A DNA stretch of 64,000 nucleotides from a virus, in IMG/VR virus record IMGVR_UViG_3300021426_000094, positions 1-64,000 of that record; one strand, 5' to 3'. The notes below the pieces were generated by a model. The model was not told the origin of the DNA and did no database searches. It saw nothing but the letters and a program-made list of their open reading frames with translations. Positions 10,723 to 47,680 of the stretch are shown piece after piece. The stretch's first letter is position 1. Every line of letters starts with the position of its first letter. The translations under genes were made by a program, and so were the position numbers.

Positions 10723-10774
10723 GCAATCACCTTCCTTTTTTATCTGTTTGATTCATTAAAAGTTACATACGAAA

Positions 10775-10851
10775 TAACGGGAGGGGGATTTGAACCCCCG
10801 AATCTCTAGCCCATGAAGCTAGTGAGTTAAACCGAACTTCTCCATCCCGCG
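10775..10851 (-). tRNA. tRNA-Met(CAT) type. It could be elongator Met, initiator-like, or a lysidine Ile2-type tRNA.
   Basis: The minus-strand read gives a cloverleaf with a GGGGG/TTCAAAT/CCCCC T-arm. The anticodon stem is CTAGC/GCTAG with loop TTCATGG, so the anticodon is CAT. The acceptor stem is GCGGGA/TCCCGT with a C1-U72 mismatch. No CCA is encoded. Confidence 0.75.
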
Positions 10852-10861
10852 ATATAATAAA

Positions 10862-39998: not shown

Positions 39999-40358
39999 TT
40001 AATAGCTGTCCTTTACTCTATATTTCCACATAATTCGTATAATACCGTATCTCTCGATATAATCATCTTCTGTAACTATCTTTAAATAAATAGTACGCCA
40101 TGTCACACCATGTTTAAAATCGTTATGTTCTTTTTGAATACGTGCGACAATCTTATTAGCAATTTTCATAGCCAATTCTTTATCAGTTGTATCAATATAG
40201 AAATCAAATACTTCTGTATAATGATAATGTTCATAATCCACACGGACGCCATCTACCATTAGCACTAAGCCAGTGGGCACCGTAATATTAGGTGGAATAT
40301 AAAATTGAATGTCATCTGCTTTAGTATCATGTTGCATATATTTTTCCCTCGTTTTCAT
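39999..40358 (-). CDS. Hypothetical protein
   Basis: 119 aa. Confidence 0.35.
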   Translation of the reverse strand: MKTREKYMQHDTKADDIQFYIPPNITVPTGLVLMVDGVRVDYEHYHYTEVFDFYIDTTDKELAMKIANKIVARIQKEHNDFKHGVTWRTIYLKIVTEDDYIERYGIIRIMWKYRVKDSY

Positions 40359-40557
40359 CTAATACGCCACGATCACAAAATCCTGCATCTACTGTATTAT
40401 CATGTATTATCCAGTCATGTTCCAAATAACCATCATCATCCCATTCCACATATTCTTCAAAACACATAGGACAATTATCTGTACATCTATTTTTACAATT
40501 TCTGCAATACACAATGTTCAAAACTTTATTTCTCCCTTTTTTAAGCGCCGACCACAA
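40327..40557 (-). CDS. Small Cys-rich protein
   Basis: CRNCKNRCTDNCPMC. Confidence 0.3.
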   Translation of the reverse strand: MWSALKKGRNKVLNIVYCRNCKNRCTDNCPMCFEEYVEWDDDGYLEHDWIIHDNTVDAGFCDRGVLDENEGKIYAT

Positions 40558-40826
40558 ATAGGACAGTAGTGAATATCTCTAATATAGTCAAAACCGATAC
40601 CACCATCCCAATCATTCATTTCATATAAAGTGTCACCATCTTCATGATTTGCGCAAAACTCACAATAATGATGTTTGTCTGTTTCAACATCAATAGTTGG
40701 TAATGAGCGGAATCGCTTGATATCTGCACATTCTTCATCAATTACACAAGGAGAAGGAGCGTAGCCACATTCAATCGAACAAAACATTTTAATAACATCA
40801 TCGAGTTTAACATATTTATCGGACAT
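40518..40826 (-). CDS. Zn-finger small protein
   Basis: CSIEC...CEFC...CPICG. Confidence 0.35.
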   Translation of the reverse strand: MSDKYVKLDDVIKMFCSIECGYAPSPCVIDEECADIKRFRSLPTIDVETDKHHYCEFCANHEDGDTLYEMNDWDGGIGFDYIRDIHYCPICGRRLKKGEIKF

Positions 40827-40869
40827 TTAATTATCACCTCTCATAATATAGCATATTTTTATGCTCATT

Positions 40870-41112
40870 TCAAGCCCTTTTATATTTCCCAATTGACCCA
40901 TCTTCAAATTCAATCATAATATATTCAGGATACTTTTGTTCTTTATAAAACTTATATCCTGTAATTGGTTTCCTTGCTTTTGGTAAGATGTGTGCAGCCT
41001 CACATTTTTCTGCGGCAGACCGATCTCTATATACAATGCCACAGATTTCACACTGATATTGATTAAGTTCTTTCATATTATATATCCTCATTACCACCTT
41101 ATAATAACCCAC
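40870..41112 (-). CDS. Small Cys protein
   Basis: CEICG...CEAAH. Confidence 0.3.
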   Translation of the reverse strand: MGYYKVVMRIYNMKELNQYQCEICGIVYRDRSAAEKCEAAHILPKARKPITGYKFYKEQKYPEYIMIEFEDGSIGKYKRA

Positions 41113-41318
41113 GGCTGATTGTACTGATTTCCTGTCTGCACATCATAGCCCAATTCTTTAAGCTTCTTTATCTGAAGAGCGGTCAATGATCCTTCAAAAG
41201 AATATTCAAATTCCCCTTGTTTTGCGCATTCTTCCATCCGTTCTACCATTTCTCCAATATGAGAATCAATAAATTTTTCTGCTATTTCTCGCATCATGGC
41301 AGCTGTTTTAAAACTCAT
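41091..41318 (-). CDS. LGY...W small-protein family, member 1
   Basis: 75 aa. Ends KELGYDVQTGNQYNQPWVIIRW. Confidence 0.45.
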   Translation of the reverse strand: MSFKTAAMMREIAEKFIDSHIGEMVERMEECAKQGEFEYSFEGSLTALQIKKLKELGYDVQTGNQYNQPWVIIRW

Positions 41319-41327
41319 ATCTTCACC

Positions 41328-41555
41328 TCACCATTCAACTACAAACCAATGATTTTCAGCGTTCTGTCCGGTTGTTACCTTAAATCCTAACAATTTTAAC
41401 AATTTATTTTCATCCTTTGTAAGAATGTCATAGCAAGCATAGTTGTAATACCCGTTTAATGCGCGCTCTTTAATTTCTTTTAAAATATTATCACCTTCTT
41501 CATATTCATTAACTATATCAGCTACCCTTCTTAAATTTTCTGCTGTAACACTCAT
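41328..41555 (-). CDS. LGY...W family, member 2
   Basis: 75 aa. Ends KLLGFKVTTGQNAENHWFVVEW. Confidence 0.45.
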   Translation of the reverse strand: MSVTAENLRRVADIVNEYEEGDNILKEIKERALNGYYNYACYDILTKDENKLLKLLGFKVTTGQNAENHWFVVEW

Positions 41556-41564
41556 ATCGATACC

Positions 41565-41816
41565 TCACCACCCAATCTTCGTAAAGGTCTTATCGCATAT
41601 CTTTCGCACATCAACTATATAGCCCATTCTTCTTAATTGCTCTATAGTCGGTTCGCTTAGTTCACCCTGAAAGCCATATACAAAATTACCTTGCTTTGCC
41701 TGTTTATAGATACCCTCAAGCACGTAATCTTCAAATTCATGCGGCTCAATATATGAAGAGGCCAATTCGTGCATTCTGTTAGCTGACTCTAATCTCACCA
41801 TTCGATCACCACCCAT
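41565..41816 (-). CDS. LGY...W family, member 3
   Basis: 83 aa. Ends RRMGYIVDVRKICDKTFTKIGW. Confidence 0.45.
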   Translation of the reverse strand: MGGDRMVRLESANRMHELASSYIEPHEFEDYVLEGIYKQAKQGNFVYGFQGELSEPTIEQLRRMGYIVDVRKICDKTFTKIGW

Positions 41817-42031
41817 CTAACATCACTTTGGCTCTCAGTTACCGTATAGCCCAGTATTCTTAATGCAGCAATTGTTTCAGGTGAAATATGACTCGTTACA
41901 TAATAAGAATACTCATCAAGTGCTCGTTTCCTAATATTATTATAAATACTAGTATCTATAAGCTGTGTTTTCATTACTTTAGTTACTGCATGCATATCTC
42001 GTGCATTTAATACATTATCTTTCAAACTCAT
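41795..42031 (-). CDS. LGY...W family, member 4
   Basis: 78 aa. Ends RILGYTVTESQSDVRWVVIEW. Confidence 0.45.
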   Translation of the reverse strand: MSLKDNVLNARDMHAVTKVMKTQLIDTSIYNNIRKRALDEYSYYVTSHISPETIAALRILGYTVTESQSDVRWVVIEW

Positions 42032-42335
42032 CTTGTAACTCCCATCTGTTTGTCTTAATTATTCTATCCCAATTGTCCTCGACCACAGGTCGGATCACAT
42101 GTATCTGTTCATTGGTCAGGTGACGCTTAAAATTAAATAAGAATCCGTGTTCTTTAAATGTCACACAATGAATTTCACACCAGCCCATATCAAGCAGCGT
42201 CTCTTCAGGATGTGGCGTCCATTCTCCAATTAATTCGTCAGCGGTCGCTAGGTGTTCCATGTAATCACATGGGTAAAAATCACCGTTCGGTGCAAGCCAG
42301 CCTGTGTCCAATTCTGTAAAAGGTTGTTTATTCAA
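42015..42335 (-). CDS. Hypothetical protein
   Basis: 106 aa. Confidence 0.35.
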   Translation of the reverse strand: MNKQPFTELDTGWLAPNGDFYPCDYMEHLATADELIGEWTPHPEETLLDMGWCEIHCVTFKEHGFLFNFKRHLTNEQIHVIRPVVEDNWDRIIKTNRWELQDEFER

Positions 42336-42777
42336 TGTGTAAATTCTCCTTCATCCACTGATCATTTTCTTCTTGTTTCGCCGCTAAATCTCGCTGTAAT
42401 TCTTTGATTAAATTTGCCTGAATTTCCGTCCGTTTCATTTTTTCTTTCTGCTTTTTGTAGCGTTTAATAAATTTTCTATATTTACAATAATCAAAATATG
42501 TTTTAAATGAAACGCCCTTATATTTGTAATTAACACTAAATTCATTTAACCCAAAATTTTCTGGCATTATACTATATAAAGAATAAAATTCTTTAAATGT
42601 CAATTCAGGATTATCCCAATTTTTTATATAACGTTCCCAATCATGTATAGAATTGCGCAACTTAACTGTTAAAATAATTGCGCCTATTATTAACAACCAT
42701 AACCACCACAGTTCAATTTTGCAAAAAACAGCTAATAATAACATAATTTCTATAATAAGTAATATGTTTATTTTCAT
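42328..42777 (-). CDS. Membrane protein, cassette copy 1
   Basis: The start was reset to MKINILL (GAGG RBS). Two TM helices are followed by a basic, coiled-coil tail. It is a paralog of 43963..44403. Confidence 0.45.
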   Translation of the reverse strand: MKINILLIIEIMLLLAVFCKIELWWLWLLIIGAIILTVKLRNSIHDWERYIKNWDNPELTFKEFYSLYSIMPENFGLNEFSVNYKYKGVSFKTYFDYCKYRKFIKRYKKQKEKMKRTEIQANLIKELQRDLAAKQEENDQWMKENLHIE

Positions 42778-42788
42778 GTTAACCTCAT

Positions 42789-43472
42789 TTACATCCAATA
42801 ATTAATAGCCTCTTGCTGTTCCATAAAAAAGTGAATGCCGGGCGCACATTCATGCCAGCGATTTTCATCAAAGTCTGGAACCGTCACAATTTTTCGTGGT
42901 TCGTAAGTAAATCCATAATCATAACTCGAAAATGCTTTACCTACATAATTACCATCTAATGTACGAATATCCAGAACTTGTGCTTTACTACATCTACATT
43001 TACGAGAAAAACCGCTACTACGTCTTGCTTCTGTCGGTATCAATAACTTAATAATACAAGGTCGCATTTCATATGTGCCATCAATGGTGCCATCAATGTG
43101 TAACTGAGGATACAATCCCATTTTCCATCCTATAAAAGCACCTTTTGTTGGGCATACAGTAGGTACATAAGGTTCTGATCCAATAAAATGACAGTTGTTT
43201 ACATATGCATCAAAAATTCCTATATAAGTACAATTACGAAAAATGCAATTTCTAAAAATTAAAGATGTATTATTTTGATTAAAAACGCAATACTCAAAAA
43301 TACAATATCTAAAAATAATGGAACAATTTCTATCAAGAAGAGCGCATATATCTGTTGTAAATGAGCCAAAATTGAAACCTATAAAATGGCATTTATCATA
43401 TAACGTATCAATTGAAGTATTCTTGAATGCGTGTGAATAAGAAGGAAATATCGTTTTGTTTTTAATAATCAT
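42789..43472 (-). CDS. Pentapeptide-repeat-like (CxFxxCxF) protein, cassette copy 1
   Basis: Repeats such as NCSIIFRYCIFEYCVFNQNNTSLIFRNCIFRNCTY are present. A conserved GIHFFMEQQEAINYW C-terminus is shared with its paralog 44400..45002. Confidence 0.5.
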   Translation of the reverse strand: MIIKNKTIFPSYSHAFKNTSIDTLYDKCHFIGFNFGSFTTDICALLDRNCSIIFRYCIFEYCVFNQNNTSLIFRNCIFRNCTYIGIFDAYVNNCHFIGSEPYVPTVCPTKGAFIGWKMGLYPQLHIDGTIDGTYEMRPCIIKLLIPTEARRSSGFSRKCRCSKAQVLDIRTLDGNYVGKAFSSYDYGFTYEPRKIVTVPDFDENRWHECAPGIHFFMEQQEAINYWM

Positions 43473-43475
43473 AAT

Positions 43476-43777
43476 TTAATTATAACTCCTTTCAGGTAGC
43501 GCCAACAGCCTTGAGATCGACATCGTTGCCCAATGTCTATAATTATTCGAACCTCCGCAATCCTCGTCAGGCCATACAATAGGACAGTGTTCACATATCT
43601 CAGATGCATATTCACATAGAAAACAATAATTACATAAATTATTAAATCCATGATCGATGCACCAGTTCGCTTTATATTGCACCCTATCAGACGGCGATGG
43701 ACAGTCACCCAAATCCCGTTGCATGTCGCCCCACATCTGACGGTGATAGGAGAGTGCTTGCTCTTTAGTTAATTTCA
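43476..43777 (-). CDS. Cys-rich protein between the cassette copies
   Basis: The start was reset to MKLTKEQ (AGAGGGG RBS). CNYCFLCEYASEICEHC is present. Confidence 0.4.
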
Positions 43778-43782
43778 TTTCA

Positions 43783-43962
43783 TCACCCCTCTGCAGCCGC
43801 TTCAACGATTAGTACCATATATTGTATTACTATGCCAAATAATATTGGAAAGAAAATAGCAAAAAAGTCTCTAACGTCTTTTGGGTTTATAAATACTATA
43901 TTTGATATCACCCATGCCAAAATAATAGTTGCCGTCATAAATTCAATATGTATTCGTTTCAT
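43783..43962 (-). CDS. Small two-TM membrane peptide (59 aa)
   Basis: Not in the ORF track. Its ATG is adjacent to the upstream stop, and a hydrophobic core is present. Confidence 0.35.
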   Translation of the reverse strand: MKRIHIEFMTATIILAWVISNIVFINPKDVRDFFAIFFPILFGIVIQYMVLIVEAAAEG

Positions 43963-44403
43963 TTAATTTAGATGCTCCTTCATAAAGTAATCAATGTCTG
44001 CTTGCTCTCGTGCTAGTCCTCGCTGAAGATTGGCTATTAGCTCTGTCTGACGTTCAAGCTGCTCCTGCTGAATCTGACGTTTCTCAATATTTTTATGAAA
44101 ATGTCGATACCGCATTACATCAATAAACGTCTTGAAGTCTACAGCGCTATCACTATATCTTATGTCATAATCATTAAGTATAAAATCTTCTGGCATTACA
44201 TGATATAAAGCAATGAACTGGCGGTAGGTGATTTTCGGAGTGGTGGAGCAGACTATATTCCACCAACTTGTATAAAACCATAATAGCACTAGATCAATGA
44301 CCCAAATTATAATCATCATTAAAAGTGCAAACCCATTACCCGTACAAAGGGTAAGAACTGCGGGTGCTATAAAAAAGAATACGAATATAATTATAGCTAT
44401 CAT
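43963..44403 (-). CDS. Membrane protein, cassette copy 2
   Basis: The start was reset to MIAIIIF (AAGGAG RBS). It is a paralog of 42328..42777 (YRQFIALYHVMPEDF versus FKEFYSLYSIMPENF). Confidence 0.45.
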   Translation of the reverse strand: MIAIIIFVFFFIAPAVLTLCTGNGFALLMMIIIWVIDLVLLWFYTSWWNIVCSTTPKITYRQFIALYHVMPEDFILNDYDIRYSDSAVDFKTFIDVMRYRHFHKNIEKRQIQQEQLERQTELIANLQRGLAREQADIDYFMKEHLN

Positions 44404-45002
44404 AGATTCTCCTTGTAATAATTCACTGCTTCTTGCCGCTCCATAAAGAAATGAATACCATGTGAACATGCGTAGCTCCTGTCATCATCAAATTGATCAG
44501 GATACACCCATTCGTTAATTTTATAATAAAAATCAGGCGACCACCGAGAACAAGTAACCTCATTCTCTGCTGGTGTCCCATCCATATTTTGAATCTCCAA
44601 TACAAATGCCTTATCACATCGGCATTTGCGCTCTCCATAAGGCGAAACTCGCCTTGCATCAGCTGGGATCAGCAGCTTAATTAACTGCCCATTACAATCT
44701 ACTTTCCAACCGATAAATGCACCCTCAACTGGACAGACATAGGGAATATAAGGTTGATTACCAAGAAAGTCACAGTCTATTACATGGGCGTTAAATGTAT
44801 TCTTAAATGTGCAATTTATAAAAATACAGTTCATAAAAAATATAGGAAACGATTCATCGAATGTACAATATTCAAATACACAAGATGAAAAAGTAAATGG
44901 CAGATACCATTTCCTAAAATGAACTCCAATAAAATGACAATGCGTATAAGTATCAGGTATATAAGGATAAGTACCCGGAAAATATTTCTTATCTGTTATC
45001 AT
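44400..45002 (-). CDS. Pentapeptide-repeat-like protein, cassette copy 2
   Basis: A paralog of 42789..43472. It shares LIKLLIP(T/A)(E/D)ARR...RKCRC...GIHFFME(Q/R)QEA(I/V)NY. Confidence 0.5.
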   Translation of the reverse strand: MITDKKYFPGTYPYIPDTYTHCHFIGVHFRKWYLPFTFSSCVFEYCTFDESFPIFFMNCIFINCTFKNTFNAHVIDCDFLGNQPYIPYVCPVEGAFIGWKVDCNGQLIKLLIPADARRVSPYGERKCRCDKAFVLEIQNMDGTPAENEVTCSRWSPDFYYKINEWVYPDQFDDDRSYACSHGIHFFMERQEAVNYYKENL

Positions 45003-45017
45003 TTAATTTATGCCCCC

Positions 45018-45254
45018 TTATTCCCAACTAATACAATATTCTGGCATATTATATTGATTACCTGTAACAATATCATAGCCCAGTTCTTCCAATTTTTTTC
45101 GAACTGCTGGTCGCAACACCCCATCCCCATAATATTTATAATATCCCTGAGCCGAATCTTTATCGATGTTTTCCATTATTTCATTAAATTGGGACTGTTC
45201 ATATTTAGATATAGCTGCTTTTGCACGCTGACGTGCCTGTTCTGCTGTTATCAT
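45018..45254 (-). CDS. LGY...W family, member 5
   Basis: 78 aa. Ends EELGYDIVTGNQYNMPEYCISWE. Confidence 0.45.
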   Translation of the reverse strand: MITAEQARQRAKAAISKYEQSQFNEIMENIDKDSAQGYYKYYGDGVLRPAVRKKLEELGYDIVTGNQYNMPEYCISWE

Positions 45255-45269
45255 TTATTTTTACCCCTC

Positions 45270-45524
45270 CTACCATATAATATATGTTACATAACCACTG
45301 TCTGTCCAAGATGACGAATGTGTGGTTATTGTATAACCAAGGTCTTCAAATGTACTTTTTACAAAAGGAGAAAGTTCATCATAATATTCACACGATGTTT
45401 CACCTTTAACAACAGCTTCTCCAATTTTATTATTAACGGTTTCGATCTCGTCCTTATAACGATATATCATTGAATATTCTCGTGCTTTTTCTGCGCTGTA
45501 CAATTCGTTCATACTTTCTCCCAA
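45270..45524 (-). CDS. LGY...W family, member 6
   Basis: 84 aa. Ends EDLGYTITTHSSSWTDSGYVTYIIW. Confidence 0.45.
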   Translation of the reverse strand: MGESMNELYSAEKAREYSMIYRYKDEIETVNNKIGEAVVKGETSCEYYDELSPFVKSTFEDLGYTITTHSSSWTDSGYVTYIIW

Positions 45525-45739
45525 TTAATATATGTAATACAACCACTGTGCAAACTAATAATTCCTACATTATAACCCATGTCTATTAATATCTGTTCAG
45601 TGGCTTCGCTGATCTCTTCTTCGATTAGACAACATGTCGTGTGCTTTTCTGCTGCAGTCCTGATTTTGTCTTCAATATATTTTAATTCTTCTGGATCAAC
45701 ACCTTGTGCGATTTTATATGCGTCTATTGCTGATAGCAT
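45509..45739 (-). CDS. LGY...W family, member 7
   Basis: 76 aa. Ends IDMGYNVGIISLHSGCITYINWEKV. Confidence 0.45.
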   Translation of the reverse strand: MLSAIDAYKIAQGVDPEELKYIEDKIRTAAEKHTTCCLIEEEISEATEQILIDMGYNVGIISLHSGCITYINWEKV

Positions 45740-46820: not shown

Positions 46821-46932
46821 ATTTTTATTACTCCTTTCGTTTGTATTGTACAAAATAAGGTAAAGGGCGTGAATCACCTTATTTTAATTAGTGTTTTTAT
46901 ATGGACACTCAAAAAGTCCAATGTTTTCAGTA

Positions 46933-46994
46933 GGGGGTGTACAAAATTTGAATATAGTAAATACTCTTACTATATTCATTTTTCGTACACCCCC
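46933..46994. promoter_or_regulatory. Large imperfect palindrome/hairpin (28-bp arms) followed by a GGGTTTTTT run
   Basis: GGGGGTGTACAAAATTTGAATATAGTAA-ATACTC-TTACTATATTCATTTTTCGTACACCCCC. Candidate operator, origin element or plus-oriented terminator in the divergent intergenic region. Confidence 0.4.
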
Positions 46995-47170
46995 CTCCGT
47001 AAAATAAGGGTTTTTTGATGGTCGGATTGTACTACAATTTTAAGGCTAATAAATATAAGGGGAATTCCTATATGGAAGGTCTCCACTCCCACAATGATAG
47101 TATAACAGGTATGTGTCAAGGCGTCAATAGATAATTAAATATATGGGGAAAATGATTGGAATGGGGGAAA

Positions 47171-47415
47171 TGTGGATAAGTGAATGGGTATCAGGGAATT
47201 GGGTAAGAAAATACTGGGGAAAATGATGTGGATAAAATGAGGATAAAGATATGCGTGTAAATTATTTATTGAGGTATGGTTTATGGGAGAGAAAATGGGG
47301 TAAAGGGTAATATGCATATAAATTATTTAATGGAGAGATGGGGAAAATAAGAAATGAGAAGAAAGGAGGGTAGGTAAAATGGAGGGAGGAGTATAAAAAT
47401 AGTGTGTGTGGATAA
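47171..47415. promoter_or_regulatory. Three perfect DnaA boxes (TTATCCACA, read as TGTGGATAA on plus) in a C-depleted, G/A/T-only, iteron-like stretch. Candidate replication origin.
   Basis: TGTGGATAA occurs at 47171-47179, 47227-47235 and 47407-47415. Repeated ATGGGGAAAATGA and ATGC(G/A)T(G/A)TAAATTATTTA(T/A)TG motifs lie in between. Almost no C is present on the plus strand for about 300 bp. Confidence 0.45.
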
Positions 47416-47589
47416 AGCACGTGTCCCTGCCAGGGCTTCAGATCAACCTGGAATCGGTTCGAACCACCCCGCCATTTTTCACATGCCTATATATACTGTA
47501 AATCATAGTTTATGCTATAGTAGTAGTGTGATATCTGGCTTCCGGATATCCGCCCTATACACATTCACAATTAAGCCATTCATTAAGCG

Positions 47590-47680
47590 GTTCCCGAATG
47601 GGAACAGCCTAATATTCGGATTTAGTCCCGAATGGGACTATCTATAATCCGAATGGCGGAATATCGTTTTTTGAATGGCT
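47590..47680 (+). promoter_or_regulatory. Candidate rightward early promoter (TATAAT at 47643-47648) with four (C/T)GAATGG operator-like repeats
   Basis: TTCCCGAATGGGAA, GTCCCGAATGGGAC, CCGAATGGCGG and TTGAATGGCT flank a perfect -10 hexamer. The -35 is weak (TTTAGT). Confidence 0.35.

Follow-up and report, generated by a model that had tools for sequence, protein, structure and literature searches.

A duplicated gene pair of an SPbeta-like phage encodes divergent pentapeptide-repeat/DUF5758 proteins and small membrane-anchored proteins

The window analysed here is a stretch of 64,000 nucleotides of viral DNA (IMG/VR record IMGVR_UViG_3300021426_000094, positions 1 to 64,000), in which two related pairs of genes follow each other. 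Each pair associates a soluble protein, A1 or A2, with a membrane protein, M1 or M2. Pentapeptide repeats and the domain DUF5758 come together in a large protein family, already known but functionally uncharacterised and carried mostly by phages, to which A1 and A2 belong as divergent members. M1 and M2 are small and membrane-anchored, and the family into which they fall is unannotated. The pair was duplicated long ago, before this phage clade diverged. Only in this clade is A accompanied by M, in an association that is facultative and probably not an obligate 1:1 complex. The explanation that best accounts for the whole block, which we give an even chance of being right, is that A1 and A2 would be early accessory proteins involved in phage-host or phage-phage conflict. 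An earlier note made from the DNA letters had described this block as a tandem duplication of a two-gene cassette, and its four open reading frames (ORFs) were recovered at the same positions. All coordinates below are in window numbering, all genes of the block lie on the minus strand, and L001, L003, L009 and similar labels designate related loci.

The A1 and A2 proteins

A2 (44400-45002, minus strand) is a protein of 200 residues, predicted to be cytoplasmic, in which a short pentapeptide-type beta-helix (residues ~18-82, 44757-44951, minus strand) precedes DUF5758 (residues 84-195, 44418-44753, minus strand). Its paralogue A1 (42789-43472, minus strand, 227 residues) is built in the same way, with the beta-helix at residues ~25-98 and DUF5758 at residues ~101-225. 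The two proteins are 39% identical (BLASTP, E 2e-49), which agrees with the paralogy proposed earlier, and the C-terminal motif that they had been said to share was found in both (GIHFFMEQQEAINY in A1, GIHFFMERQEAVNY in A2). What had been overlooked is that this near-identical C-terminus corresponds to a known Pfam family, DUF5758 (PF19062). It is matched above the gathering cut-off of 26.9 bits by A2 (117 bits, E 4.5e-34) and by A1 (100.9 bits, E 4.6e-29), the A1 match being split in two stretches. Alignment with hmmalign revealed an insertion of ~17 residues after the first strand of the A1 domain.

A database search returned 2934 homologues, the majority of which associate PF00805 with PF19062. 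The mycobacteriophage matches (152 records) are mostly labelled 'pentapeptide repeat protein', and the PHROG match for proteins of the A1/A2 type is phrog_9562, a family without assigned function. In the alignment, the canonical architecture consists of a conserved N-terminal cap, followed by A(D/N)LxG pentads in widely differing numbers and then by DUF5758. In A1, A2 and their close relatives, a short C-x-F-x-x region stands in place of the cap and the canonical repeats. Within DUF5758, the residues R118, C127, R128, Y160, R175, GIHFF 182-186 and A192 (A2 numbering) show at least 99.5% conservation, up to full invariance, across 210 family members, and A1 and A2 both carry every one of them. 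DUF5758 is the domain that defines this type of protein and probably also its functional domain. A literature search found no paper mentioning DUF5758, and searches combining pentapeptide repeats with phage, anti-defence, mycobacteriophage or giant virus returned nothing specific.

The AlphaFold2 model of A2 reaches a predicted local distance difference test (pLDDT) score of 83.5. Judging from predicted structures, DUF5758 is a small beta-rich fold without solved relative. Foldseek searches against BFVD retrieved this fold in giant viruses and in phages with TM-scores of ~0.7-0.8, and several paralogues with this fold were found in Acidovorax phage ACP17.

The conserved residues of DUF5758 can also be read differently, as those of a zinc-stabilised nucleic-acid-binding or catalytic domain with key Cys/His residues that would act on DNA or RNA directly. 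C90, C127, C129, C179 and H184 are jointly present in 188 of the 210 members, three Arg and one Tyr never vary in the same set, and one phage record names its homologue 'RNA-binding protein'. Three of these cysteines are less than universal, however (C90 97%, C129 93%, C179 99%). Because C90 and C129 are lost in mycobacteriophage Inca gp55 and in the copy carried by the Bifidobacterium megaplasmid pMP7017, and C179 is replaced by Ser in the Enterococcus copy, a four-ligand site is not universal in the family. The domain is moreover mildly acidic, as the repeat region also is, with a median net charge of -3 as calculated from sequence. Altogether, a zinc-stabilised domain of this kind seems quite unlikely.

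Ahead of DUF5758, the repeat region had been proposed to fold as a beta-helix. This proposal is borne out, although the helix is short (~65 residues, ~3 coils) and irregular. The CxFxxCxF runs on which it was founded are present in A2 (CVFEYCTF and CIFINCTF) and in A1 (CIFEYCVF), where a second run, CIFRNCTY, ends with Tyr. Pentads of the form [ACSTV]x[FLIMV]xx give 9 overlapping matches in residues 22-81 of A2, ~8 of them distinct, and 16 in A1, with breaks in the register. Among the Pfam pentapeptide models, PF00805 did not match A1 or A2, and the matches to PF13576 (E 0.43-0.66) and PF13599 (E 0.022) lie below the cut-offs, as do those of the close relative P0010. The Pfam model LD_SV2 scored 21.1 bits, below its cut-off of 29 bits. 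When A2 was compared with the PDB sequences by phmmer, only the luminal domains of SV2 were retrieved (E 5e-4), through the matching pentads CTFDD and CTFID. The profile of the whole family retrieved from the PDB only pentapeptide-repeat proteins, including Qnr and MfpA, with a match confined to the repeat part.

The cysteines of the repeats could have been the ligands of a zinc finger, as the earlier note had considered. In pentapeptide repeat proteins, the side chains at positions i-2 and i face the core of the helix. The repeat cysteines of A1 and A2 occupy the inward-pointing i-2 position and are thus packing residues, not metal ligands. The helix of A1 and A2 is a short quadrilateral beta-helix of the Cys/Phe type, SV2-like, with ~3 coils.

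Beta-helices of this kind evoke DNA mimicry, and a DNA mimic or gyrase modulator is what had first been suggested for the A proteins. Like Qnr, MfpA or AlbG, the helix would mimic B-form DNA and would block or protect gyrase, or block restriction or other DNA-targeting defence enzymes. The match of the family profile to the Qnr and MfpA sequences passes through the repeat region, the genes occupy early positions, and 6 of 79 loci have, no more than 3 genes away, a neighbour resembling a DNA cytosine methyltransferase. One copy of the gene is found on a chromid of Enterococcus, a genus with an intrinsic Qnr-like protein. The dimensions of the helix are at odds with such a role: in MfpA and Qnr, which function as dimers, each monomer has ~8 coils. 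Its net charge does not resemble that of DNA either, being -2 in A2 and +1 in A1, with a family median of ~-2 per 100 residues (values drawn from sequence and not from a surface calculation). Additionally, the best structural and sequence match of the helix is SV2C, a protein-binding domain, and the number of pentads in the family ranges from none to >30 ahead of a near-constant DUF5758. Finally, the orthologues that occupy the A1 slot in related phages mostly have no helix at all. Because the helix is short and near-neutral, its repeat count goes from none to dozens and helix-less orthologues dominate the A1 slot, DNA mimicry is unlikely. The presence of a pentapeptide beta-helix does not, on its own, mark a phage protein as a DNA mimic.

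The membrane proteins and their association with A1 and A2

M2 (43963-44403, minus strand, 146 residues) and M1 (42328-42777, minus strand, 149 residues) are 41% identical across their C-terminal 91 residues (E 1e-24). They had been recognised as paralogues from a common motif, which reads TFKEFYSLYSIMPENF in M1 and TYRQFIALYHVMPEDF in M2, and the comparison supports it. Both proteins begin with a hydrophobic stretch of ~45 residues (residues 1-48 in M2) that is interpreted as two transmembrane segments, followed by a soluble domain of ~100 residues with a charged helix at its end. M2 homologues of 147 residues share the same start Met. The soluble domain is rich in K/R, which by the positive-inside rule would place it in the cytoplasm, the same compartment as the A proteins.

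The close M family comprises 137 proteins. Searched with a profile of the family, 1.84 billion cluster representatives yielded 316 matches at E <= 1e-3. The best 150 of these 316 are mostly 110-200 residues long, and many of the aligned ones have a shorter hydrophobic N-terminus with apparently a single transmembrane segment. The aligned family is characterised by the signature W..P.(I/L)(T/S)(F/Y)..F...Y...P ... (D/E)FK(T/S)..D..RY, with the N-terminal transmembrane part before it and the charged C-terminal helix after it, and M1 and M2 fit this description. Among 48 members scanned, there was no PHROG match and no shared Pfam family (three single-member Pfam matches, E 2e-4 to 9e-4). A PADLOC scan found nothing for A1, A2 and M1. 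A match of M2 to the PADLOC model PDC-M45C (E 0.014) was put down to chance, being reproduced by only 1 of the 48 family members.

The genes of the block are transcribed in the order A2-M2-p59-C109-A1-M1-p106, in the window as in L009. In L001 the order is A2-M2-p59-C109-M1-p106: A1 is absent and 66 bp separate C109 from M1. Loci L003 and L004 read M2-A-p59-x-C109-C109'-A1short-M1-p106, L010 and L011 read M2-A-p59-C109-A1short-M1-p106 with one C109 match each, and L007 begins M2-x-A-A'. The order of the first pair is thus flipped in L003, L010 and L011, where M2 lies ahead of A.

The earlier note had presented the M protein as the membrane partner of A. M does stand beside A in this clade, but it is dispensable for A1, and having such a partner is not a trait of the family: of 79 viral loci with DUF5758, just 4 contain an M homologue, and these 4 come from this phage clade. 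A gene for a transmembrane protein adjoins the DUF5758 gene in 8 of the 79 loci, which is no excess, as ~10% of the genes there encode transmembrane proteins. No recurrent neighbour of DUF5758 was found across the 79 viral loci; the 445 neighbours fall into 292 clusters, the commonest of which occurs in 7 loci.

A tighter association could be envisaged, in which A and M would form an obligate two-component module duplicated as a cassette. A would then bind its cognate M at the inner membrane, for instance in superinfection exclusion or in a toxin/antidote-like fashion. In every clade locus examined, A adjoins M or is one small gene apart from it, in either order. The stop codon of A2 overlaps the start codon of M2 (ATGA) with an internal Shine-Dalgarno sequence, AAGGAG, 7 nt upstream, and the gap of 11 nt between A1 and M1 contains GAGG, 6 nt before the M1 ATG at 42777. 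The A and M paralogues have diverged alike, as predicted by their duplication as a unit, and the predicted cytoplasmic location of the M soluble domain is that of A. Tight spacing is, however, common throughout the operon and hence weak evidence. The pairing is not obligate because the close relative L001 retains M1 (~90% identical) without A1. In L009, A1 has been swapped for another allele and M1 is still 90-93% identical. A distant M homologue (L012) is also found on a contig of 2.4 kb from which the DUF5758 gene is missing, and in other phages, 75 of the 79 loci with DUF5758 are devoid of any M homologue. Given L001 and L009, an obligate A-M complex appears unlikely, and a facultative association is preferred.

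Variability and genomic context of the block

Synonymous sites are saturated between the paralogues (proportion of synonymous differences, pS, 0.75-0.76). Both paralogue lineages are present in L001, L003/L004, L009, L010 and L011; L007 ends ahead of the second pair. The duplication is dated as old because of this saturation and because both lineages are found wherever a clade locus covers the whole block. The duplicated pair described in the earlier note is real, but it is not recent. The ratio of nonsynonymous to synonymous substitution rates (dN/dS) between the two copies, suggested at the time as a check, is uninformative since the synonymous sites are saturated.

Between close relatives, no other part of this early-type operon varies as much as the block. 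A2 orthologues on phage contigs of 139-157 kb are 93% identical. When the window is compared with L009, a 157 kb contig from nearly the same phage, most flanking genes encode proteins with 98-100% identity. The values are 91.5% for A2, ~91% for M2, 81% for C109, 90-93% for M1 and 55-57% for A1. This low identity of A1 and its dS of 1.2, amid near-identical flanks, indicate an allele replacement in L009. M1 orthologues are 89-93% identical where A1 is missing or replaced. In the databases, A1 is represented by one cluster of exact sequences from several contigs, then by alleles with 56% and 48% identity, then by ~60 clusters of DUF5758-only proteins of ~150 residues that fill the A1 slot in relatives. 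In sample ERZ12302813, the high-coverage L001 without A1 occurs together with the low-coverage L154, whose A1 allele is the exact one, which suggests that A1 is present in some phages and absent from others inside one community.

Diversifying selection, which had been deduced from the duplication, is not supported. The gene-wide dN/dS is 0.2-0.4 for A2, M2, C109, A1 and M1, above that of the four neighbours p340, p106, s78b and s83 (0.00-0.09; 0.01-0.02 for p106) yet below 1. Substitutions between close A2 orthologues, split by domain, showed no clear bias.

Three further genes belong to the syntenic block. Between the two pairs lie the 59-residue membrane peptide and the Cys-rich protein that had already been noticed, here named p59 and C109. 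The first (43783-43962, minus strand) is a peptide with two transmembrane segments, syntenic in most clade loci (L001, L003/L004, L009, L010 and L011); in L007, the 59-residue ORF that follows M2 is not hydrophobic. C109 (43476-43805, minus strand, 109 residues) contains 8 Cys and 4 His with the pattern CPSPS...C..H...C..C..C...C..C, and from this composition it is probably metal-binding. No Pfam or PHROG match was found for C109, which is tandem-duplicated in more distant relatives, with two copies in L003/L004 (L003 7581-8237). The conserved p106 (42015-42335, minus strand, 106 residues) ends the syntenic block in every locus extending that far, with 98% identity in L001 and L009 and 58-65% in distant relatives.

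The window carries terminase, portal and endolysin genes, in accordance with its earlier identification as a phage. Its terminase is closest (41.5% identity) to those of SPbeta-like Bacillus phages of ~125-135 kb, and the related contigs measure 139-157 kb. The phage is thus a large one of gut type, of ~140-157 kb and SPbeta-like by its terminase; no near-identical DNA was found among cultured phages. Nearly every gene from position 1 to ~46.9 kb is on the minus strand, and an intergenic region of 750 bp (46880-47630) lies where strand and GC skew switch (~46-47 kb). The block is located 2-5 kb into the leftward operon, which begins at this divergent intergenic region, hence in an early-type position, and is surrounded by small accessory genes.

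The intergenic region is a candidate for a divergent early-promoter region or a replication origin. It contains purine-rich direct repeats, with three copies of TGGGGAAAATGAT, two of ATGTGGATAA and a third, TGTGGATAAA. A long hairpin, imperfect and with arms of 57 nt, lies at 46904-47023. A search of this region against Rfam gave only chance microRNA-like matches on the hairpin.

Seven paralogous proteins of 75-84 residues ending in ...LGY.V....W flank the block on the minus strand, four downstream (41091-42031) and three upstream (45018-45739). Only A4, G55 and W73 are invariant among them; they have no Pfam match and weak PHROG matches, and their copy number and identity differ among related phages. 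Just downstream of this array, p76, p102 and p80 (40327-41112, minus strand) are small Cys-rich proteins with CxxC pairs that look like accessory proteins of the zinc-ribbon type. A tRNA-Met is located at 10774-10852 (minus strand), between an exonuclease-like gene and the gene downstream of the terminase.

Elsewhere, DUF5758 genes occur in comparable surroundings. Mycobacteriophage Inca gp55 is encoded by the third gene of a rightward operon that begins just past a divergently oriented immunity repressor. In other phages, the gene lies among RusA, SSB, dUTPase and DUF551 genes (Pfam labels), and some of its neighbours resemble DNA methyltransferases, as read from their sequence and not by a profile scan. 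Bacterial DUF5758 genes are mostly found in metagenome-assembled genomes of Clostridia and Bacteroidales from gut and rumen. Proteins with pentapeptide repeats and DUF5758 are also encoded by the Enterococcus raffinosus chromid pCX012922 (L151 4989-5621), near GNAT, PadR and Spx genes, and by the Bifidobacterium breve megaplasmid pMP7017 (L150 4779-5585), both outside any obvious prophage.

Proposed role and comparison with known systems

The proposed conflict could consist in counter-defence, host takeover or exclusion. DUF5758 would be the constant working module of the A proteins. The beta-helix would not be a DNA mimic but an exchangeable protein-binding surface, as SV2 offers its helix to a ligand. 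In this clade, M may localise or assist A at the inner face of the membrane, the pairing being facultative. This role in conflict is our best guess from the position and the variability of the genes, and several observations weigh against it. PADLOC and NCBIfam show no link of these proteins to defence or counter-defence. With dN/dS below 1, the variability may come from relaxed constraint and recombination instead of an arms race. The family also occurs in a non-phage context, on the Enterococcus raffinosus chromid, which makes a housekeeping function conceivable, for instance in protecting topoisomerases. Finally, the ATGA overlap would fit a real complex, and so would the closeness of A and M, which are contiguous or separated by a single small gene in most clade loci.

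Near-identical phages that differ mainly in their A1 slot, which holds the full-length protein, the 56% allele or nothing, amount to a natural experiment on host range and counter-defence. The value of the locus lies in this natural polymorphism of A1, together with a viral domain, DUF5758, that is widespread and functionally uncharacterised. Gut and soil phages carry the domain very frequently, with 526 loci in IMG/VR and metagenome proteins in the thousands, and its fold extends to giant viruses.

The closest known proteins are the phage proteins that associate PF00805 with PF19062, such as Inca gp55, the 'pentapeptide repeat protein' of cluster E phages and the members of phrog_9562. They have the same DUF5758 domain, whose invariant residues are kept by A1 and A2, the same order of a repeat beta-helix followed by DUF5758, and a similar placement among early or accessory phage genes. 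A1 and A2 differ from them by their C-x-F-x-x repeats, which replace the A(D/N)LxG repeats and are too few and irregular for PF00805, and by the absence of the canonical N-terminal cap (KIxIK..G.VLFEYE..NNTIKDT..EAVK.G). The window is also distinguished by its two paralogues per genome, each beside a clade-specific membrane protein.

For the helix alone, the best counterpart is the luminal domain of SV2A/B/C (LD_SV2; PDB 4JRA, 5JMC). Like A1 and A2, it has Phe-centred pentads with Cys, Ser, Thr or Val at i-2 (CTFDD, CTFID), and it is similarly short. SV2, unlike A1 and A2, is a eukaryotic transporter of which this domain faces the vesicle lumen. The resemblance lies in the type of repeat and gives no reason to infer common descent. 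Qnr, MfpA, AlbG and McbG have at least ~8 coils and are dimeric, electronegative and devoid of DUF5758. A1 and A2 contrast with them by their ~3 coils, their near-neutral charge and their large C-terminal domain of a different fold.

Further counterparts are found in giant viruses (in BFVD, Edafosvirus, Harvfovirus, Hyperionvirus and Klosneuvirus; mimivirus L87 and L812). Their proteins have the same predicted C-terminal fold as DUF5758 (Foldseek E down to 1e-8, TM-score ~0.7-0.8, 20-34% identity), and this domain likewise follows a repeat region. They differ by N-terminal parts of the MORN, HEAT, RING or pentapeptide type and by their eukaryotic hosts. In a broader and rather improbable scenario, DUF5758 would be a pan-viral effector or anchoring domain placed behind interchangeable repeat scaffolds (pentapeptide, MORN, HEAT, RING) and acting on a cellular component conserved from bacteria to amoebae. 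In the clade of the window, this domain would have been duplicated and given a dedicated membrane anchor, and would serve as a hypervariable counter-defence or exclusion module whose A1 alleles (present, absent, swapped or helix-less) would set the host range.

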